Origin: Escherichia coli phage vB_EcoM_Shy
Sequence record: MT833282.1
DNA: 64,000 nt
Strand: one strand, 5' to 3'
Shown here piece after piece: positions 25,460 through 32,121 of the stretch (within the stretch, counting starts at the first letter, position 1; each line of letters begins with the position of its first letter). Made by a program: the position numbers and the translations under genes. The notes under the pieces are model-generated. The model searched no databases. It was not told the origin of the DNA and was given only the letters and a program-made list of their open reading frames with translations.

Positions 25460-26875
25460 ATGAGCGAATTATTTAAACATGCGCACCTTCATGCAGGTCG
25501 AACTGAAAATGGTGCTGTAAACCATACTTCATCAATGTCTGCTTTGGTAGACTTCTACAAAGCCGCTGGCTCAAGCCGTAGCAATGTAGAAATCTTACCA
25601 GACCTGTTCTACAAAGCTTTGCGTGAGGATGTTGATGTTGCAGTTCGTATTTTACTGCATATGCGAGATGTACGAGAAGGTATGGGTGAGCGTAAAGCTT
25701 TCCGAACTGTTTTACTTCAAGCAATTGAAGATAAAGTTTTAGAACCTACACAGGTTCTTCGCATTATGGATAAGATTGCAGAACTCGGTCGTTTTGATGA
25801 CTTCAAAATCTTCGTAGGTACTCGTTTTGAGACAGATGCCTTCAAACATTTAGAAGCAGCATTACTAGACCCTGCAACAGCAGGTTTAGCGGCTAAGTGG
25901 TTACCACGAGTAAAACCACGCCACAAACAGTTTGTAAAACGTTTCTGTAAGTTTGCAAACTTAAGTGAGAAGGAGTATCGCACACTGTTATCTGCACTGT
26001 CTGATACGGTTGAGCAAAAAATCTCTGCTAATGAGTTTGGTAAGATTGACTACAGTAAGGTTCCTTCGCTAGCTGCTGCACGTTACCAAAAACTCTTTAA
26101 CCGTAAAGATGGGGAACGTTACAAAGCTTACATCGAGTCACTCTCAAAAGGTGAGGCTAAGATTAACGCTGGTGCTGTTTACCCATATGATGTGATTAAA
26201 TCTATCAAGTATGGTAATGCAGACGTTGCTAATGAGCAGTGGAAAGCACTACCAAACTGGATGGCAGAAGGTGAAAACATCTTGTGTATGACTGATGTTT
26301 CAAGTTCAATGTCTTGGGTGAATCTTGGTTCAATCACTGCCCTTGATATTGGTGTATCACTTGCCTTGTATGTAGCAGAACGTAATACTGGTTGCTTTAA
26401 AGATGAGTTAATGGTCTATTCAACAAGCCCTCATTTCATTGAACTGAGTGGTGATTTACGAAACCGTCATCGTCAGGTAATGCGTCATGTTGAATATGGT
26501 TCAACTAACTTACAAGCAGCTTTTGACCGTATTCTTGAGGTAGGCAAGAGAAACAACTTGACTCAGAAAGATATGCCAAGTAAGCTTATTATCTTCTCTG
26601 ATATGGAGTTTAATCAGGTTGATGGTGCAAATGGTCGTACAAACTTTGAAGCAATTCAGAGTAAGTACAAAAAAGCTGGATACGAAATGCCACAACTAGT
26701 ATTCTGGTACTTAGCAAACCGTAATGGTACTTGCGAAGTATCTGTTAAGGATAATGGTGTAGCAATGGTATCAGGGTTCTCTCCAGCCACTTTAAAAGCT
26801 CTGCTTGGTGGTGAGAAGTTTGACCCAATCAGCGTAATGCTCAAAGCAGTAATGATTGACCGTTACATCTGGTAA
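25460..26875 (+). CDS. vWA-domain protein, TROVE/Ro60-like
   Basis: 471-aa ORF; helical N-region then vWA domain with MIDAS-like DxSxS (ILCMTDVSSSM), GST, IIFSDMEF and C-terminal SGFSPATL, resembling my recollection of the Ro60 vWA region; sits immediately upstream of the tRNA array. Confidence 0.55.
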   Translation: MSELFKHAHLHAGRTENGAVNHTSSMSALVDFYKAAGSSRSNVEILPDLFYKALREDVDVAVRILLHMRDVREGMGERKAFRTVLLQAIEDKVLEPTQVLRIMDKIAELGRFDDFKIFVGTRFETDAFKHLEAALLDPATAGLAAKWLPRVKPRHKQFVKRFCKFANLSEKEYRTLLSALSDTVEQKISANEFGKIDYSKVPSLAAARYQKLFNRKDGERYKAYIESLSKGEAKINAGAVYPYDVIKSIKYGNADVANEQWKALPNWMAEGENILCMTDVSSSMSWVNLGSITALDIGVSLALYVAERNTGCFKDELMVYSTSPHFIELSGDLRNRHRQVMRHVEYGSTNLQAAFDRILEVGKRNNLTQKDMPSKLIIFSDMEFNQVDGANGRTNFEAIQSKYKKAGYEMPQLVFWYLANRNGTCEVSVKDNGVAMVSGFSPATLKALLGGEKFDPISVMLKAVMIDRYIW

Positions 26876-26894
26876 AAAGTTTCAAAAAGGGTAT

Positions 26895-26922
26895 TGACAA
26901 TGTGTTTGATACCCTTTAATAT
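26895..26922 (+). promoter_or_regulatory. promoter TTGACA-16-TAATAT embedded in 8-bp inverted repeat AAGGGTAT/ATACCCTT
   Basis: promoter hexamers upstream of the tRNA array; palindrome arms flank the -35 and spacer (operator-like). Confidence 0.5.
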
Positions 26923-26984: not shown

Positions 26985-27014
26985 TTGACAACCACTAAAA
27001 AATAATGTTAAAGT
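26985..27014 (+). promoter_or_regulatory. promoter TTGACA-18-TAAAGT with inverted repeat AACCACT/AGTGGTT
   Basis: second promoter about 30 nt upstream of the first tRNA. Confidence 0.45.
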
Positions 27015-27040: not shown

Positions 27041-27117
27041 CTCTGTTTAGCTCAGCTTGGTAGAGCGTTCCGTTTGGGGCGGTAAGGTCGGAGGTTCAAG
27101 TCCTCCAACAGAGACCA
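27041..27117 (+). tRNA. tRNA-Pro (anticodon UGG)
   Basis: hand-folded cloverleaf: acceptor CTCTGTT/AACAGAG, D-arm GCTC..GAGC, anticodon loop TTTGGGG, T-arm GGAGG-TTCAAGT-CCTCC, CCA encoded. Confidence 0.7.
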
Positions 27118-27124
27118 AATTAAT

Positions 27125-27202
27125 GTTCCAGTAGACAAAATGGTAAAGTCACCACTCTTTCAAAGTGGATATTTGAGGGTTCAAATCCCTTCTGGAACGC
27201 CA
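27125..27202 (+). tRNA. tRNA-Glu (anticodon UUC)
   Basis: acceptor GTTCCAG/CTGGAAC, anticodon stem-loop CCACT-CTTTCAA-AGTGG, T-loop TTCAAAT. Confidence 0.7.
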
Positions 27203-27209
27203 GTTTTGA

Positions 27210-27282
27210 CAGAAGACCAATTACAGCAAGTTTAATCTTATTCATCTGACACGAAATCGGACAAAGAAGAGATTTGGTCTGG
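27210..27282 (+). ncRNA. structured spacer element A (CAGAAGACC...TwCAGCAA...GGTCTGG family)
   Basis: conserved 5' CAGAAGACCAATTACAGCAA and 3' TTGGTCTGG forming a 7-bp helix (AGACCAA/TTGGTCT); occupies the whole tRNA-Glu/tRNA-Met spacer. Confidence 0.45.
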
Positions 27283-27293
27283 TCATTAAGAAT

Positions 27294-27370
27294 TGCGGGT
27301 ATAGAGAAAGGGCGTCTCACATGTCTCATTAGCATGGTATCGGCAGGTTCGACTCCTGCACCCGCCTCCA
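27294..27370 (+). tRNA. tRNA-Met-like (anticodon CAU)
   Basis: anticodon stem-loop CATGT-CTCATTA-GCATG, T-arm GCAGG-TTCGACT-CCTGC, acceptor with mismatched first pair; Met versus Ile(CAU) not decidable by eye. Confidence 0.55.
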
Positions 27371-27376
27371 ATTTTG

Positions 27377-27436
27377 CAGAAGACCGTATTCAGCAACAAA
27401 CTACTTTTTGCGGATAAAAGAAAAAACACGGTCTGG
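27377..27436 (+). ncRNA. structured spacer element B (same family)
   Basis: CAGAAGACCGTATTCAGCAA ... ACGGTCTGG; helix AGACCGT/ACGGTCT shows compensatory changes relative to element A. Confidence 0.45.
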
Positions 27437-27447
27437 CAATGTATTAA

Positions 27448-27524
27448 GGTTAGGAAGCACATAAGGTATGTGCGGTCGCCTGTTAAGCGAATGGCACAGG
27501 GTTCGAATCCCTGACTAACCGCCA
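27448..27524 (+). tRNA. tRNA-Asn (anticodon GUU)
   Basis: D-arm GCAC..GTGC, anticodon loop CTGTTAA, T-arm CAGGG-TTCGAAT-CCCTG, CCA encoded. Confidence 0.7.
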
Positions 27525-27595
27525 AATTTAGGAGAGAAGCGATTGCTCACCGATTTGTAAGGTGCAAGTCCTTAGCCTGAATAGAATAATAAAAT

Positions 27596-27683
27596 GTGTC
27601 GTTATCCCGTAGATGGTAGCGGTGGGGACTGTAAATCCCTTGTCATTGAGACTCGGTAGGTTCGACTCCTACACGGCACACCA
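27596..27683 (+). tRNA. tRNA-Tyr (anticodon GUA), long variable arm
   Basis: acceptor GTGTCGT/ACGGCAC, anticodon loop CTGTAAA, 88 nt with extended variable arm, T-loop TTCGACT. Confidence 0.65.
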
Positions 27684-27689
27684 AATAAA

Positions 27690-27767
27690 GGTTATGTAGT
27701 TTAATCTGGTTAAAATACTCCCCTGTCACGGGAGATGATGAGGGTTCAAATCCCTTCGTAACCGCCA
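27690..27767 (+). tRNA. tRNA-Asp (anticodon GUC)
   Basis: acceptor GGTTATG/CGTAACC, anticodon stem-loop CTCCC-CTGTCAC-GGGAG, T-loop TTCAAAT. Confidence 0.7.
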
Positions 27768-27853
27768 AATTATAATAAGTATTTCAAAATGATGTTTGAG
27801 AGGGCTATTTAGCCCCTCCCTTAAAGAGTTCTTACGAGTATTCTTTAAAGGAG

Positions 27854-27926
27854 CAGAAGACCAAATTCAGCAAGAACGTATGAAATTTCAAGCCAATTTA
27901 ATTTTGAAAATTTAAACTTGGTCTGG
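27854..27926 (+). ncRNA. structured spacer element C (same family)
   Basis: CAGAAGACCAAATTCAGCAA ... CTTGGTCTGG, 7-bp helix AGACCAA/TTGGTCT. Confidence 0.45.
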
Positions 27927-27939
27927 CTCAACAAATTTA

Positions 27940-28071
27940 CAGAAGACCGTTTACAGCAAAACTTAAACAATCTATTTCTCCGGTAAAGAAAAGGCGAAGG
28001 TTCGATTCCTTCACTCGGCAGATGTCGAGTTGGTGTAATGGTAGCACTTAAGATGATAAACAATGGTCTGG
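27940..28071 (+). ncRNA. structured element D with circularly permuted tRNA-like domain (Y-RNA-like candidate)
   Basis: 5' CAGAAGACCGTTTACAGCAA and 3' CAATGGTCTGG helix enclose T-arm (GAAGG-TTCGATT-CCTTC, 27996-28012), closed acceptor-like hairpin (ACTCGGC-AGAT-GTCGAGT, 28013-28030) and D-arm (GTGT-AATGGTA-GCAC, 28033-28047); order is T-arm, acceptor, D-arm. Confidence 0.5.
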
Positions 28072-28072
28072 T

Positions 28073-28209
28073 AATTATCTTTGTAGATAAGTTATTAAGC
28101 TTCCCTGTGAGTATGCGACCACAAAGGTGAAAGGGTAGATTCTAGATTTAACCCGAAAAGACACATCGCTACAGACCTTAAGCAAGTCTGGGTAGCTTAT
28201 CTACAAAGA
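28073..28209 (+). ncRNA. long hairpin element E (18-bp perfect inverted repeat enclosing about 100 nt)
   Basis: ATTATCTTTGTAGATAAG (28073-28090) is the exact reverse complement of CTTATCTACAAAGATAAT (28192-28209); interior contains CAGACC..GTCTGG hairpin. Confidence 0.45.
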
Positions 28210-28218
28210 TAATTTAAT

Positions 28219-28294
28219 GGAAGTGTAGCAGAATGGTGATGCGGCAGACTTTTAATCTGACAGGCGATGGGTTCGAATCCCTCCACTTCTACCA
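28219..28294 (+). tRNA. tRNA-Lys (anticodon UUU)
   Basis: acceptor GGAAGTG/CACTTCT, anticodon loop CTTTTAA, T-loop TTCGAAT with weak T-stem; CCA encoded. Confidence 0.6.
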
Positions 28295-28298
28295 ATAT

Positions 28299-28375
28299 GG
28301 TTCAGTCGCAGATAAGGTAATGCAGGGGTTTCATAAGCCCTATGAATGTGGGTTCGATTCCCATCTGAACCTCCA
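28299..28375 (+). tRNA. tRNA with anticodon CAU (Met or Ile-lysidine type)
   Basis: acceptor GGTTCAG/CTGAACC, anticodon loop TTCATAA, T-arm GTGGG-TTCGATT-CCCAT. Confidence 0.6.
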
Positions 28376-28376
28376 A

Positions 28377-28452
28377 GCTGGTATAGTTAAGAAGGTTATA
28401 ACACTCCCCTGATAAGGGAATATCGGTGGTTCGATTCCACCTACCAGTACCA
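28377..28452 (+). tRNA. tRNA-Ile (anticodon GAU)
   Basis: anticodon loop CTGATAA, T-arm GGTGG-TTCGATT-CCACC, acceptor GCTGGTA/TACCAGT. Confidence 0.65.
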
Positions 28453-28476
28453 ATCTCAATAAAGTTGTTGACATTA

Positions 28477-28505
28477 AGATGTGACCACTTTATAGTAACT
28501 AAAAT
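28477..28505 (+). promoter_or_regulatory. sigma70-like promoter TTGACA-17-TATAGT inside the tRNA array
   Basis: consensus -35 and good -10; downstream 280 nt has no tRNA and no credible ORF. Confidence 0.5.
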
Positions 28506-28787
28506 ACTTCATAATATGTATAATTCAAACACCAATACATGAGCGTTAGACGTAACACAATGTGGGGAAATTTGTTGTACATATTCTGAATAGTTTTCGT
28601 TGCGTAGCGTCTATTTTGCAAATTTAAAATAAATGCAAACGACAATGTTTTCTGGCAGTAGCTTGATAGGCTAAACACCAGTGAGGTCTTCCAATCCCTC
28701 ATCAAAGAATTTGGCGTACTCGCCCACGGTATGATTAATAAGGTGGGCATCTTTAAGGGCTTTCTAAGAGAGCCTTTAAAGATTAAT

Positions 28788-28864
28788 GCACCCTTAGTTC
28801 AATTGGATAGAGCAACGGTCTTCTAAATCGTTAGTTACAGGTTCGAATCCTGTAGGGTGTGCCA
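28788..28864 (+). tRNA. tRNA-Arg (anticodon UCU)
   Basis: anticodon stem-loop ACGGT-CTTCTAA-ATCGT, T-arm ACAGG-TTCGAAT-CCTGT, acceptor GCACCCT/AGGGTGT. Confidence 0.65.
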
Positions 28865-29006
28865 AATAGTTAGCAGATTGCTTAGACGACCTTATCGGGT
28901 CTCCGTGTAAGGAGGTGGTCTGTATCTCATGTTTTCCAGAACATGTAAATAATCTGAGAAGGGGCTTTACAGTGTTGCGAAAATACGGTAAGCTTCGAAT
29001 TATAGT

Positions 29007-29089
29007 GTGGGACGATGTTAAGACTCTAAGGCATGAGCAACGGCCTCCAAAACCGTTTCAAAGGGGTTCAACTCCTCCGTCCCATGCCA
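29007..29089 (+). tRNA. atypical tRNA-like gene, possibly tRNA-Trp (anticodon CCA)
   Basis: acceptor GTGGGAC/GTCCCAT and T-arm AGGGG-TTCAACT-CCTCC fold well; anticodon loop CTCCAAA; D region is enlarged (83 nt total) so the call is tentative. Confidence 0.4.
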
Positions 29090-29102
29090 AAGTCTTATTA
29101 GG

Positions 29103-29190
29103 GGTAGGTAGCGGCTAATGGTAGCCAAACTGTCTTGAAAACAGTTGCCACTGTAGAGATACGGTGAGGGTTCGACTCCTTTACTTACCG
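29103..29190 (+). tRNA. tRNA-Ser (anticodon UGA), long variable arm
   Basis: anticodon stem-loop ACTGT-CTTGAAA-ACAGT, long variable arm, T-loop TTCGACT, acceptor GGTAGGT/ACTTACC. Confidence 0.65.
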
Positions 29191-29348
29191 CCTAATAAGA
29201 TTTTACACCGTCCATGCTTGCTCGCATTTTCGGTTTATCCCTCGTGTATTGTCGTACACACTGATAAAGCACCTAGTAGGTGTCACGGAGAAGAGATAAT
29301 ATCAAGCTCTCCAAAGGTTCTAGTCACCGGATTAAACAAGACTATGCA

Positions 29349-29370
29349 AAGACCTATTTAGGTCTTTTTA
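29349..29370 (+). terminator. rho-independent terminator-like hairpin within the tRNA array
   Basis: AAGACC-TATTTA-GGTCTT followed by TTTTT. Confidence 0.45.
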
Positions 29371-29448
29371 GAGGGCTTCTAAGGTTATTACAGCTTGTTG
29401 TGGAACCTTGTTGCTTAGGTTCTTAGAAGTTCTCTAAAAAGATTTAAT

Positions 29449-29526
29449 GGGAGATTGACGGTAATTGGTAAACCTACCATCCTTAGAAGTTGGTGTTTGA
29501 GGGTTCGAATCCCTTGTCTCCTACCA
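29449..29526 (+). tRNA. tRNA with Leu-type anticodon UAG, short variable arm (tentative Leu)
   Basis: acceptor GGGAGAT/GTCTCCT (two G-U pairs), anticodon loop CTTAGAA, T-arm GAGGG-TTCGAAT-CCCTT, A73, CCA encoded. Confidence 0.5.
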
Positions 29527-29533
29527 AATTAAT

Positions 29534-29609
29534 GCAGGTGTAGCAAAATGGTTATGCGGCTGACTCTTAATCAGTAAGACGATGGGTTCGAATCCCTCCA
29601 CCTGTACCA
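29534..29609 (+). tRNA. tRNA-Lys (anticodon CUU)
   Basis: paralogue of the 28219 tRNA; anticodon stem-loop CTGA-CTCTTAA-TCAG; same unusual T-stem. Confidence 0.6.
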
Positions 29610-29615
29610 AGCATT

Positions 29616-29692
29616 GGGGTCATAGTTTATATGGTTAAAATTCGAGTTTTGCAAACTTGGGAACTGAGTTCAATTCTCAGTGACTCCACCAA
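29616..29692 (+). tRNA. tRNA-Ala (anticodon UGC)
   Basis: acceptor GGGGTCA/TGACTCC with G3-U70, anticodon loop TTTGCAA, T-arm CTGAG-TTCAATT-CTCAG. Confidence 0.7.
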
Positions 29693-29698
29693 TTAGCG

Positions 29699-29773
29699 CA
29701 TCCATAGTTTAAACGGGAAAATTACAGTCTTCCAAACTGAGGTTGAGGGTTCGATTCCCTCTGGATGCTCCAA
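29699..29773 (+). tRNA. tRNA-Gly (anticodon UCC)
   Basis: acceptor GCATCCA/TGGATGC, anticodon loop CTTCCAA, T-arm GAGGG-TTCGATT-CCCTC. Confidence 0.7.
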
Positions 29774-29780
29774 ATTAATG

Positions 29781-29856
29781 CTCCTATCGTATAATTGGCT
29801 ATTACAGTTGCCTTGTAAGCAACTTATCAGGGTTCGAATCCTTGTGGGAGCACCAA
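29781..29856 (+). tRNA. tRNA-Thr (anticodon UGU)
   Basis: anticodon stem-loop GTTGC-CTTGTAA-GCAAC, T-loop TTCGAAT, acceptor GCTCCTA/TGGGAGC. Confidence 0.7.
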
Positions 29857-29951
29857 TTCAGAGGTCAAGTGAAAGACCGCTTTGAGTCAACTGAAGACCG
29901 TAACAAATTCCACGGAGTTGAGTTAGCGGCACAACTTCAGACCTCTTTCAT

Positions 29952-30026
29952 ACTCGCTTAGTTTATATGGTAAAACATCACCCTTACAAGATGAAGAAAA
30001 AGGTTCAAGTCCTTTAGTGAGTACCA
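29952..30026 (+). tRNA. tRNA-Val (anticodon UAC)
   Basis: anticodon loop CTTACAA, T-arm AAAGG-TTCAAGT-CCTTT, acceptor ACTCGCT/AGTGAGT. Confidence 0.6.
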
Positions 30027-30027
30027 T

Positions 30028-30105
30028 GTTCCAGTATCCCAATTGGCAGAGGATGCAAGCTCAAACCTTGTACTAGTGACGGTTCGAATCCGTCTTGGAA
30101 CACCA
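30028..30105 (+). tRNA. tRNA with Leu-type anticodon CAA, short variable arm (tentative Leu)
   Basis: acceptor GTTCCAG/TTGGAAC, anticodon stem-loop GCAAG-CTCAAAC-CTTGT, T-arm GACGG-TTCGAAT-CCGTC, A73. Confidence 0.5.
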
Positions 30106-30110
30106 ATTTT

Positions 30111-30186
30111 GCAGGATTAGTTCAAATGGATAGAGCAACAGTTTACGAAGCTGTTAATAGGGGTTCGAATCCCTTATCCTGCGCCA
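30111..30186 (+). tRNA. tRNA-Arg (anticodon ACG)
   Basis: acceptor GCAGGAT/ATCCTGC, anticodon stem-loop ACAGT-TTACGAA-GCTGT, T-loop TTCGAAT. Confidence 0.7.
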
Positions 30187-30205
30187 ATTTAAAGAGGCTA
30201 TTTAG

Positions 30206-30763
30206 ATGAGATATTTGAAGTATGCTTCATGGATTTTCTTAGCTTTGTTAGAGCCATTTGCAGCAATCTTAGCAGTTATCTTAGCACCTTTCGTAGTTCC
30301 ATTTTACAGTGAGAAGAAAGGACACTTACCTTTCGGATTTAGATGGATGGAGACATATGACAACCCTATTGATGGTGATGAAGGTCATATCGAACGATGG
30401 GCTAAGATTAGAAAGATTGGTAAGCTAGGTGTCTATATGCAGAGAGTCGGATGGCTCTGGAGAAACAAAGCTTATAACTTCTCCTACCATGTGTTAGGAA
30501 GAGATGTAAAAGATGTTACTAAGTGGAAAGGTAATATCAACGTAAGTTCTAACCCTAAAGATAATCAGACAGGTTATCTCCTAATGTGGAACAGTAATGC
30601 TTGGGGATTATTCGCTTTTATCCCATCAATTAAAGTCTTTGGTAAACAATTCTACTGGAGAATTTATGTTGGGTGGAAACTTAAAAGTGTTGTCCCAGAA
30701 GAAAGAGCATTCTCAAGGGAAAGAGTTATGTTGGCATTCTTTATTCATCCACTGAGAAAGTAA
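30206..30763 (+). CDS. membrane protein embedded in the tRNA array
   Basis: 185-aa ORF with AAAGAGG SD; N-terminal TM helix (WIFLALLEPFAAILAVILAPFVV), aromatic-rich. Confidence 0.5.
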   Translation: MRYLKYASWIFLALLEPFAAILAVILAPFVVPFYSEKKGHLPFGFRWMETYDNPIDGDEGHIERWAKIRKIGKLGVYMQRVGWLWRNKAYNFSYHVLGRDVKDVTKWKGNINVSSNPKDNQTGYLLMWNSNAWGLFAFIPSIKVFGKQFYWRIYVGWKLKSVVPEERAFSRERVMLAFFIHPLRK

Positions 30764-30771
30764 AGATTTAA

Positions 30772-30847
30772 AGGGGATTAGTTTACAAGGTTAAAACCTC
30801 GGTCTTTGAAATCGAAGAAGTTGGTTCAATTCCAACATCCCCCGCCA
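30772..30847 (+). tRNA. tRNA-Gln (anticodon UUG)
   Basis: anticodon stem-loop TCGGT-CTTTGAA-ATCGA, T-arm GTTGG-TTCAATT-CCAAC. Confidence 0.6.
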
Positions 30848-30849
30848 AT

Positions 30850-30926
30850 GCTCCATTACTCCAATTGGCAGAGGCCAGACTTAAAATCTGTGTTATGTAT
30901 CGGTTCGAATCCGATATGGAGTACCA
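30850..30926 (+). tRNA. tRNA with Leu-type anticodon UAA, short variable arm (tentative Leu)
   Basis: anticodon loop CTTAAAA, T-arm ATCGG-TTCGAAT-CCGAT, acceptor GCTCCAT/ATGGAGT, A73. Confidence 0.5.
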
Positions 30927-30931
30927 AATTT

Positions 30932-31007
30932 AGCGGTATAGCATAACTGGCAATGCAGCAGTCTCTGAAGCTGTCTTATTAAGGTTCAAATCCTTATGCC
31001 GCTGCCA
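30932..31007 (+). tRNA. tRNA-Gln (anticodon CUG)
   Basis: anticodon stem-loop GCAGT-CTCTGAA-GCTGT, T-loop TTCAAAT, acceptor AGCGGTA/TGCCGCT. Confidence 0.55.
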
Positions 31008-31038
31008 CTTCTAAGGATTCTTACGAGAGTCCTTAAAT

Positions 31039-31114
31039 GTGGCCTTATCATAAACGGTAATGACCCATGCTGTGAACATGGTCTATACGGGTTCAAATCC
31101 CGTAGGTCACCCCA
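31039..31114 (+). tRNA. tRNA-His (anticodon GUG)
   Basis: anticodon stem-loop CCATG-CTGTGAA-CATGG, T-arm ACGGG-TTCAAAT-CCCGT, acceptor GTGGCCT/AGGTCAC. Confidence 0.7.
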
Positions 31115-31119
31115 ATTTA

Positions 31120-31194
31120 TAGTCCAAGTAGCTTATATGGTTAAAGCGCGTGTCTGAAAAACATGAGAAGAGGGTTCAAATCCCACTGGACTAC
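31120..31194 (+). tRNA. tRNA-Phe (anticodon GAA)
   Basis: acceptor TAGTCCA/TGGACTA, anticodon loop CTGAAAA, T-loop TTCAAAT. Confidence 0.6.
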
Positions 31195-31212
31195 CAATTT
31201 CAAAGGTGCTTA

Positions 31213-31947
31213 ATGAAAGAGATGACAGAACAAGGTAAGGAGATTTTTAGTCTCTTAAAAACCGGTAGAGGGTTTTCTAATCCCCTTATTACTGGTGCAG
31301 CAGTTCTCGGTGGAACCGTAGCTGCCTCTACATCACTTGTAAGCTCTATTAGCTCTGTAACAGACCCTACAATAAAGGATAAACTTGTTGCTGCTGGACT
31401 TACAACAGTTCTGCTTAACAGCTTTACAACGAGTCTGACAAGCACTACATCGACTACTAAAACGCTGACAGATTATGGTCAAAAGTCTATTGATGAGTTT
31501 TCATCACGTATGCAGGTAGCAAAAGGATATTCCAATGTTATGGGTGCAGCAGGAGAACAAGTCGGTTGTACGCCATTTAGTGGTATTATGGGCGTTGCTA
31601 CAGAGTATGGTCAAAAAGCTATTGATACGATTAACAGTGCATTAGACGGTGTTAATGATGTATTAAGTGACTTACAAGACGCTATTGACAAAGGTCTTGA
31701 TACTATTTCTGATTTAGCTAACCAAGCTGTTAGTAAGATTAATGAAGGTATCTCGAAGATTACAGCTTATGCAGATGAAGTTGTGCAGATGATTGAAGAA
31801 GAAGCTGCCCTTATTGCAGAGTACCTTAAAACGAATATCAATGGGTTCTTAGCAGGTATCTTACCAGACTGGTTTGATGATGCTTGTAAAACTGGTGTAA
31901 TTGATACTATTGCAACACCAGAAATGAAGAACGCATTACAGAAATAA
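31213..31947 (+). CDS. hypothetical Ser/Thr-rich protein
   Basis: start re-assigned to ATG 31213 (the track start at 31150 lies inside tRNA-Phe); low-complexity S/T-rich centre; stop 1 nt before tRNA-Ser. Confidence 0.5.
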   Translation: MKEMTEQGKEIFSLLKTGRGFSNPLITGAAVLGGTVAASTSLVSSISSVTDPTIKDKLVAAGLTTVLLNSFTTSLTSTTSTTKTLTDYGQKSIDEFSSRMQVAKGYSNVMGAAGEQVGCTPFSGIMGVATEYGQKAIDTINSALDGVNDVLSDLQDAIDKGLDTISDLANQAVSKINEGISKITAYADEVVQMIEEEAALIAEYLKTNINGFLAGILPDWFDDACKTGVIDTIATPEMKNALQK

Positions 31948-31948
31948 T

Positions 31949-32041
31949 GGAAGATTAACCCTAAAAGGTAAGGGAGCAGTTTGCTAAACTGCCAGTAGCT
32001 GAGAAATCGGTGTACCAGTTCAAGTCTGGTATCTTCCTCCA
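31949..32041 (+). tRNA. tRNA-Ser (anticodon GCU), long variable arm
   Basis: acceptor GGAAGAT/ATCTTCC, anticodon stem-loop GCAGT-TTGCTAA-ACTGC, long variable arm, T-arm ACCAG-TTCAAGT-CTGGT. Confidence 0.75.
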
Positions 32042-32045
32042 ATTT

Positions 32046-32121
32046 GAATCCGTGACAGAAATGGCTATGTACCTGTCTGCAAAACAGGTTTATAAGGGTT
32101 CGAGTCCCTTCGGATTCTCCA
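32046..32121 (+). tRNA. tRNA-Cys (anticodon GCA)
   Basis: acceptor GAATCCG/CGGATTC, anticodon stem-loop CCTGT-CTGCAAA-ACAGG, T-arm AAGGG-TTCGAGT-CCCTT. Confidence 0.75.

Follow-up and report, generated by a model that had tools for sequence, protein, structure and literature searches.

The tRNA clusters of phages are usually annotated as tRNAs plus 'spacers', and small stable RNAs inside such clusters have been known since T4, where rnaC and rnaD (the species 1 and 2 RNAs) are excised from the same precursors as the tRNAs. RNase III stems flank 16S and 23S in rRNA operons and occur as early-RNA sites in phage T7, and in the MALAT1-mascRNA type RNase P acts on a tRNA or tRNA-like structure and thereby defines the 3' end of an upstream non-coding RNA. 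Y RNAs beside Ro60 genes, phages included, have also been described (PMC4201824, PMC12135203). The Ro60 protein of phage phiLo binds two phage-encoded Y-like RNAs and affects host PNPase (PMC12135203), and gp130 of phage Bas63, a homolog of the Ro60-like protein considered below, has been reported to be Ro60-like and to act against the Ppl defence system; the authors of that report speculated that some of the neighbouring 'tRNAs' could be Y RNAs (PMC11482910). Here we analyse a stretch of 64,000 nucleotides (nt) from Escherichia coli phage vB_EcoM_Shy (MT833282.1; 'the window'), a Felix O1-like myovirus (Ounavirinae), in which a long inverted repeat within the tRNA array very probably forms the closing helix, P1, of a stable structured RNA that we call E5.

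The array comprises 26 tRNA genes on the + strand (27041-32121), and the repeat lies between tRNA-Asp and tRNA-Lys(UUU), within the array as the original prediction, made from the sequence, had placed it. An 18-bp perfect repeat had been proposed and is present (ATTATCTTTGTAGATAAG at 28074-28091, with its exact reverse complement at 28196-28213), but the arm coordinates first given for it (28073-28090 and 28192-28209) were off by 1 and 4 nt. Perfect pairing spans 19 bp (28073-28091 / 28196-28214), and the arms extend to 22 nt with one non-Watson-Crick position, which would be a G·U in RNA. They are separated by 98 nt, in line with the roughly 100 nt anticipated. Of the hairpin proposed for the enclosed segment, the stem CAGAC (28172-28176)/GTCTG (28186-28190) with a 9-nt loop holds, but the 6-mers CAGACC and GTCTGG named for it are not fully complementary. 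No other perfect inverted repeat of 14 bp or more with a loop of up to 200 nt exists in the whole window, and none of 100 first-order Markov shuffles produced a perfect repeat of 16 bp or more, so that chance is excluded, as had been surmised. The RNA fold of 28073-28215 reaches -45.2 kcal/mol, compared to -25.7 +/- 3.5 for shuffled sequences (z = -5.6). The stretch from 27780 to 28300 is matched by 252 phage records, 239 of which cover at least 80% of it. Absence of the repeat from related genomes had been named as a reason to abandon the idea; the element is found in about 239 of these 252 related records.

We followed the pairing in 21 distinct versions of E5 from 35 loci of the genera Felixounavirus, Mooglevirus and Suspvirus (alignment A4). 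Type A includes the window, Felix O1 and most Felixounavirus sequences; type B includes some Felixounavirus, Mooglevirus and Suspvirus. Across these sequences the 22 pairs of P1 are 98% paired, and when the 3' partners are shifted by 1-3 columns as a control, only 24-49% of cells pair. Three pairs vary on both sides (UA/CG/UG, CG/UA and CG/GC), three further pairs switch between A-U and G·U, and in type B a single base pair is deleted on both strands together. P1 and H3, the hairpin next to its 3' strand, together have 37 G·U cells; in DNA, or read from the opposite strand, each of these would be an A·C mismatch. A covariance model built from types A and B alone (R1) scores the window at 137 bits on the + strand versus 43 bits on the - strand. 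Judged by these substitutions, the arms of P1 pair in + strand RNA and the pairing is under selection. A helix held across genera through compensatory and G·U substitutions, enclosing conserved hairpins, supports the stable structured RNA that had been offered as one explanation of the repeat.

For type B sequences, RNAalifold predicts a four-way junction of P1 and three interior hairpins, H1, H2 and H3 (Table 1). H3 is found in all eight lineages, 1-2 nt before the 3' strand of P1; its stem covaries in six forms (CAGAC, CAAACC, CAGUC, CUGUUC, AAAGUC and AGAGAC) and its 9-nt loop is kept as C(C)UWWRGYAA. The loop region of H2, AUUCUAGAU, is invariant in types A and B, while its stem is extended in type B, with three covarying pairs, and shows A-U to G·U changes within type A. 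A GAGU(AU)GC-type H1 loop occurs in five of eight lineages on differing stems (UGUG/CACA, UGGGG/CCCUG, CAU/AUG or UCGUC/GAUGA, CUAU/AUAG).

In seven of eight lineages, the H3 loop finds its best Watson-Crick partner in J1, the segment that follows the 5' strand of P1, and the sequence differences between lineages are compensatory. The pairing reads GCUUA:UAAGC or UUAAG:CUUAA in type A, GCUAA:UUAGC in type B and in Yersinia phage vB_YenM_P778 (L045), and UUGCUUA:UAAGCAA, UUGCUU:AAGCAA and UUACUA:UAGUAA in three other distant orthologs (L042, L043 and L047, respectively). Per lineage, shuffling gives probabilities of 0.003-0.08 for such complementarity. From these comparisons J1 and the H3 loop probably form a pseudoknot, which we treat as a candidate.

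Three other interpretations of these loops were considered and rejected. H3 could be taken for a mimic of the tRNA-Lys anticodon arm, since the two stems are alike in the window (CAGA/UCUG); the stems differ in L043 and L046, which rules this out. Kissing loops between H1 and H3 would be limited to 3 bp, and the pairing is unconserved. Finally, J1, the H3 loop and the UWCAGCAA of nearby short modules might have contained one common protein-binding motif. Because AGCU is self-complementary, the complementarity between J1 and the H3 loop explains at least part of this likeness.

Distant relatives were reached via the protein encoded upstream of the array. In these syntenic phages the order is a DUF5681 gene, a Ro60-like gene, the tRNA array, a DUF7217 gene and the terminase, and the Ro60-like proteins are 53-63% identical to that of the window. 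In five such phages an E5 ortholog ends 0-11 nt before tRNA-Lys(UUU) (0 nt in L042), and this adjacency is kept in all lineages. P1 has 20-24 pairs in the distant orthologs (30 with internal loops in L043) and encloses 80-116 nt, and the identity of its 5' strand drops to 43-71% in these five phages and to 43-75% between lineages. The MAFFT alignment of these sequences (A8) was too poor for column-wise pair counts, and P1, H1 and H3 were tabulated per sequence.

Table 1. Positions of E5, its parts and its neighbours in the window, and of E5 orthologs in distant phages (numbered within their own loci).
Feature	Coordinates	Strand	Remarks
E5, whole structured RNA (P1+H1+H2+H3), ~142 nt	28073-28214	+	fold z, covariance model R1, conservation
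P1 5' strand (left arm)	28073-28094	+	inverted repeat, pairing in A4
J1, after P1 5' strand	28095-28102	+	candidate pseudoknot partner of H3 loop
H1 hairpin, stem UGUG/CACA, loop AGUAUGCGAC	28106-28123	+	loop kept across lineages
H2 hairpin, GGGUAGAU / AUUU-A-ACCC, loop UCUAG	28133-28154	+	loop region invariant, stem covaries
H3 hairpin, CAGAC/GUCUG, 9-nt loop CUUAAGCAA (28177-28185)	28172-28190	+	2 nt from P1 3' strand
P1 3' strand (right arm)	28193-28214	+	ends 4 nt before tRNA-Lys
tRNA-Asp	27690-27767	+	5' neighbour among tRNAs
tRNA-Lys(UUU)	28219-28294	+	ARAGORN and Rfam; starts 4 nt after P1
Ro60-fold protein gene (predicted), 471 amino acids	25460-26875	+	Pfam DUF2828 + DUF7788; PHROG 850 'RNA-binding protein'
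Near-consensus sigma-70-type promoter-like sites	26894-26922, 26985-27014	+	candidate drivers of E1-E5 and nine tRNAs
E1 short module	27209-27283	+	between tRNA-Glu and tRNA-Met
E2 short module	27376-27437	+	between tRNA-Met and tRNA-Asn
E3 short module	27852-27927	+	RCAGAAGACC..UUCAGCAA..UGGUCUGGC
E4, YrlA-like tRNA mimic (predicted)	27938-28072	+	abuts E5
E6, hairpin with 26-nt arms	29358-29447	+	directly before tRNA-Leu(UAG); fold z = -6.9
E5 ortholog, L042	9280-9421		R1 51.6 bits
E5 ortholog, L043	10248-10397		R1 23.8 bits
E5 ortholog, L045 (Yersinia phage vB_YenM_P778)	8494-8657		R1 32.6 bits
E5 ortholog, L046	8019-8154		identified by eye only
E5 ortholog, L047	7771-7912		R1 40.9 bits

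E5 is accompanied by further structured elements. The short modules E1-E3, each of the form 'stem-bulge-stem + UWCAGCAA', occupy spacers between tRNAs, and together with E4 they share CAGAAGACC-N5-CAGCAA exactly on the 5' side and YGGUCUGGY on the 3' side. E4 runs from a purine-bulge stem through UUUACAGCAA, an anticodon-like hairpin, a T arm (GAAGGUUCGAUUCCUUC), an acceptor-like hairpin and a D arm to the 3' strand, an order of parts reported for YrlA-type Y RNAs (PMC4201824). Covariation between genera is seen in its acceptor-like hairpin (ACUCGGCA/UGUCGAGU, ACACG/CGUGU and ACCCUUC/GAAGGGU). Rfam gives a partial tRNA match at 27963-28013; ARAGORN makes no call on E4, Rfam YrlA does not match it, and the position is unannotated in the records of ten relatives. 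As judged from this predicted order of arms, E4 is a tRNA-like RNA in circularly permuted form, laid out like YrlA.

E6 has arms that are 85% complementary and a 38-nt interior that contains UUACAGCUU. It scores 26.7 bits with R1 (E about 8e-4), shares with E5 the stem base RUCUUUKUAGA / UCUAMAAAGAU followed by UUAAUGG, and is kept in other genera. On these grounds we read E6 as a paralog of E5. Before E6, AAGACC-UAUUUA-GGUCUU could form an alternative hairpin competing with the 5' arm of E6.

The reading we favour, and consider rather probable, is that E5 is a Y-RNA-like accessory RNA, stable and released by tRNA processing, with P1 as its closing helix. The two promoter-like sites that precede the array are followed by the next such site only at 28468, and there is no terminator-like site on the + strand near E5, which places E5 inside a transcription unit with nine tRNAs. 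E5 itself is not an intrinsic terminator, as its loop is 98 nt long and a tRNA without a promoter of its own comes next. E5 would thus be transcribed with the nine tRNAs from the sigma-70-type promoters at about 26.9 kb. RNase P, in maturing tRNA-Lys, would leave E5 with a 3' end that in the window lies 4 nt past P1; the 5' end would result from endonuclease cleavage at P1 or inside it. RNase III is the natural candidate for this cut because E4 and E5 are one nucleotide apart, and RNase E would be the alternative. P1 has the length of an RNase III substrate (about 20 bp or more): it measures 22 bp in the window, and no lineage falls below the range of 20-24 bp. The RNase III site that was among the original suggestions is thus compatible with the helix, and both cleavage of P1 by RNase III and binding of E5 by Ro60 would be plausible. 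With both ends sealed against exonucleases by the long helix, the compact core (H1-H3 and the pseudoknot between J1 and the H3 loop) would persist. Its conserved loops would be presented to a partner, most plausibly the Ro60-like protein or a host factor recruited by that protein, and E5 would serve as an RNA partner or scaffold within an accessory RNA-metabolism or anti-defence module.

Such a pathway has counterparts among the systems introduced above. If RNase P acting on the tRNA 0-11 nt downstream makes the 3' end of E5, the arrangement is that of MALAT1-mascRNA. It differs in that the downstream element is a genuine tRNA, that the locus belongs to a bacterial virus, and that a terminal helix, not a triple helix, would protect the 3' end. 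The rnaC and rnaD RNAs of T4 are, like E5, structured, strongly folded RNAs (119-139 nt) amid phage tRNA genes. However, R1 finds no sequence or structure likeness between them and E5, rnaC is itself tRNA-like (T arm, paired ends), and the region of T4 that was read has no gene for a Ro60-like protein, unlike the window.

A sequence search of solved structures returned nothing for the product of the open reading frame at 25460-26875, so a fold comparison was needed to place it. An AlphaFold2 model from a 40-sequence alignment (predicted local distance difference test, pLDDT, 88; predicted template-modelling score, pTM, 0.88) was compared to the Protein Data Bank with Foldseek. The 12 best matches are all Ro60/TROVE proteins (Xenopus, human, Deinococcus Rsr and Thermus phage phiLo); their E values lie between 8e-8 and 2e-6 and their query-normalised TM-scores between 0.44 and 0.68, and isolated vWA domains come next. 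As modelled, the protein has a full-length Ro60 fold (TROVE + vWA). Its homologs are labelled 'RNA-binding protein' in Felix O1 records, and by tblastn homologs turn up in 709 records, belonging to phages of many hosts.

E5 lies 1.2 kb downstream of this gene on the same strand, and its ends are paired over 22 bp in the window and over 20-30 bp in the orthologs. In proximity to a Ro60 gene and in strand it resembles the Y RNAs (YrlA/YrlB of Salmonella, Yrn1 of Deinococcus, Yrl1/Yrl2 of Thermus phage phiLo; PMC4201824, PMC12135203), as it does in its size of about 100-150 nt, in the long end-pairing stem over a structured domain, and in belonging to a set of several RNAs of which one, E4, appears to be a tRNA mimic of the YrlA layout. 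Since Y RNAs adjoin Ro60 genes and are closed by a long stem between their two ends, E5 may by analogy be a Y-RNA-like partner of the Ro60-like protein, a proposal we make tentatively and with less than even confidence. E5 differs from Y RNAs in that P1 of the window is uninterrupted, with neither bulge nor Ro-binding motif, and in that it has no T or D arm, unlike the adjacent E4; it is the neighbouring modules that carry UWCAGCAA instead. Lacking both a bulged stem with a Ro-binding motif and a tRNA-like domain, E5 is not filed as a member of YrlA or Y_RNA. Nor is it a tRNA or transfer-messenger RNA (tmRNA), since neither ARAGORN nor Rfam makes a call over 28073-28214. Permissive Rfam scans of the tRNA region and of 27840-28225 gave no family for E5; the overlaps were confined to a chance-level CssrB match (12 bits) and the partial tRNA in E4.

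Several observations weigh against E5 as a Y-RNA-like accessory RNA. None of the Ro60-binding motifs GGUCCGA, GNCGAAN0-1G and CGAA is conserved in the E5 alignments A2-A4, CCCGAAAAG, present in the window, is not retained in Felix O1, and Rfam YrlA (RF02553) and Y_RNA (RF00019) do not match 27840-28225 at E values up to 10. P1 of the window is unbulged, and a bulged stem occurs only in the L043 ortholog. R1 finds no E5-type RNA in Klebsiella phage FBKp34, Cronobacter phage S13, T4, Vibrio phage V09, Aeromonas phage LAh_6 or the mycobacteriophage Rumpelstiltskin; as far as the genomes searched go, the E5 fold is specific to an Ounavirinae-like group. E5 was thus not found beside homologous genes outside this group and is no general partner of the Ro60-like family. 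The covariation rests on few independent lineages, H1 is unrecognisable in three of eight, and L046 lacks the pseudoknot. E5 is missing from two natural isolates: SP116 (L049 1601-1835) has lost the 3' half of E4, E5 and tRNA-Lys(UUU), and FG1m (L050 1955-2032) has lost the region from tRNA-Tyr through tRNA-Lys, so E5 is dispensable. Lastly, we infer both the processing steps and the link to Ro60.

The loss of E5 from these isolates fits an accessory role, like that of the tRNAs and gp130 in Bas63 (PMC11482910). The ends of both deletions fall in T-arm sequences, one of them starting in the T arm of E4, so that the repeated GGTTCGAxTCC motifs act as recombination substrates that remodel the array.

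A more specific reading appears doubtful to us, namely that E5 represents an undescribed class of pseudoknotted RNA that acts either with the Ro60-like protein, serving an anti-defence ribonucleoprotein as its scaffold or as an RNA subunit, or as a device coupled to tRNA-Lys(UUU). This tRNA is a target of host anticodon nucleases. If either version were true, E5 would be a new structural type beyond the tRNA-mimic Y RNAs.

The main rival to E5 as an accessory RNA is that P1 is a processing cassette only, at which RNase III separates E4 from pre-tRNA-Lys and from which the excised interior is discarded without a function. P1 would suit RNase III, being 20-24 bp long in all lineages, E5 always abuts the 5' end of a tRNA, and the single nucleotide between E4 and E5 leaves little for a single-strand-specific nuclease. 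E6, with a similar long stem around only 38 nt, stands directly before tRNA-Leu, which is also what a cassette would predict. P1 further resembles the RNase III processing stems of rRNA operons as a helix of about two turns around a functional RNA in a polycistronic precursor, with the difference that the RNA enclosed by P1 is small. Conservation of the interior (the H3 loop in 8/8 lineages, the H2 loop, and the complementarity between J1 and the H3 loop) is, however, unexpected for a discarded spacer, and most tRNAs of the array mature without such stems. We therefore regard a pure cassette as unlikely.

E5 might instead control the maturation of tRNA-Lys(UUU), or its yield, by acting in cis or as a catalyst, for instance as a switch that senses a ligand or protein or as a self-cleaving ribozyme. 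In favour are the strict adjacency to this tRNA, the deletion of E5 together with it in SP116 and FG1m, and the compact, probably pseudoknotted fold with conserved loops. Yet Rfam 15 returned nothing relevant among ribozymes and riboswitches at E values up to 10, no conserved candidate cleavage site was identified, and the paralog E6 lacks the core, all of which make this explanation improbable.

Action at the level of DNA, as a cruciform, a recombination hotspot or a palindromic binding site for a protein, is very improbable. The window does contain a perfect 19-bp palindrome-like repeat in a recombinogenic tRNA region, with HNH endonuclease insertions and deletions between T-arm repeats, and a DNA cruciform used for recombination or regulation was among the original suggestions. 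That suggestion is not supported, for several reasons: the G·U cells tolerated in relatives are mismatches in DNA, the score of R1 is strongly asymmetric between the strands, the 98-nt spacer is structured and conserved and would disfavour cruciform extrusion, and the observed deletions end in T arms and not in the repeat. Equally far-fetched is a miniature mobile element with terminal inverted repeats inserted into the array, for although the arms bracket only about 100 nt of non-coding sequence and E6 is a related copy at a distance of 1.3 kb, the ends of E5 show no target-site duplication, the orthologous site before tRNA-Lys(UUU) is the same in all lineages down to 53% protein identity, each genome has just two copies (E5 and its diverged paralog) at fixed positions, and the arms change by compensation and not by homogenisation between copies.

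Similar RNA modules occur downstream of Ro60-like genes in other phages and count in favour of the Y-RNA-like reading. In Rumpelstiltskin, whose protein is annotated as a 'Ro-like RNA binding protein', three 'stem + UA(A)CAGCAA' modules lie downstream of the gene (L041 2945-3210). The central module, used as a control, shows T, acceptor-like and D arms and is weakly matched by Rfam YrlA (21 bits). FBKp34 has several 'stem + ACAGCAA' modules (L011 5008-5350), one with a 22-bp closing stem, and S13 shows the same signature at L013 5396-5802 and has a YrlA-like RNA with a 21-bp closing stem. In the L043 ortholog of E5, P1 is a bulged stem (GCA-AA-GAAUCU) that is followed by UUCAGCA, which ties E5 to the 'stem-bulge-stem + UWCAGCAA' family of modules.

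S13 also has odd, long 'tRNAs' with AUUCAGCA. Over-long 'tRNAs' of 113-121 nt, annotated as 'tRNA-Ser', 'tRNA-OTHER' or 'tRNA-Asp', are found in S13 (L013 5396-5638) and FBKp34 (L011 5503-5616) just downstream of the Ro60-like gene, and in these an insert with (A)UUCAGCA or UUACAGCA replaces the normal anticodon arm. By these features they are probably Y-like RNAs rather than tRNAs. In V09, UUUUACAGCAA occurs at L014 3470-3482 in the 5' untranslated region of the Ro60-like gene, about 20 nt before its start codon, a hint of autoregulation through the same motif. Over both strands of the window TWCAGCAA occurs 22 times, against a shuffle expectation of 8.4 +/- 2.8; the E modules account for only 4 of these, and the others are scattered over coding regions.

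Other parts of the array show further irregularities. A 14-nt inverted repeat (29089-29102 / 29191-29204, 93% complementary) brackets tRNA-Ser(UGA) and could, from its position, pair the leader of this tRNA with its trailer. A tRNA-like sequence at 29008-29091 has a perfect 7-bp acceptor (TGGGACG/CGTCCCA), a T arm (GGGGTTCAACTCCTC) and a 3' TGCCA. ARAGORN is silent there and Rfam gives only a weak match to the tRNA-Sec model (23 bits); the sequence may be a degenerate tRNA or another mimic. Rfam matches tmRNA weakly at 28599-28787 (17 bits, E 7e-4, model positions 56-294), downstream of the promoter-like site at 28468, with no tmRNA call by ARAGORN over the same positions. Within this region an ORF-like stretch (28635-28661) holds GCAAACGACAATGTTTTCTGGCAGTAG and reads ANDNVFWQ*, which we take to resemble the start of the E. 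coli tmRNA tag (ANDENYALAA).

Neither Rfam 15 nor the literature searched holds a description of E5, E6 or the YrlA-like RNA of Felix O1. The spacers of the tRNA array in the window hold at least six conserved structured RNAs beside a gene for a Ro60-like protein. Together, E5, E6 and E4 offer concrete RNA candidates for studying the ligands and the mode of action of the phage Ro60-like protein. Felix O1-like phages are widely used for Salmonella typing and phage therapy, and E5 yields an RNA family with which their genomes can be annotated by covariance model.

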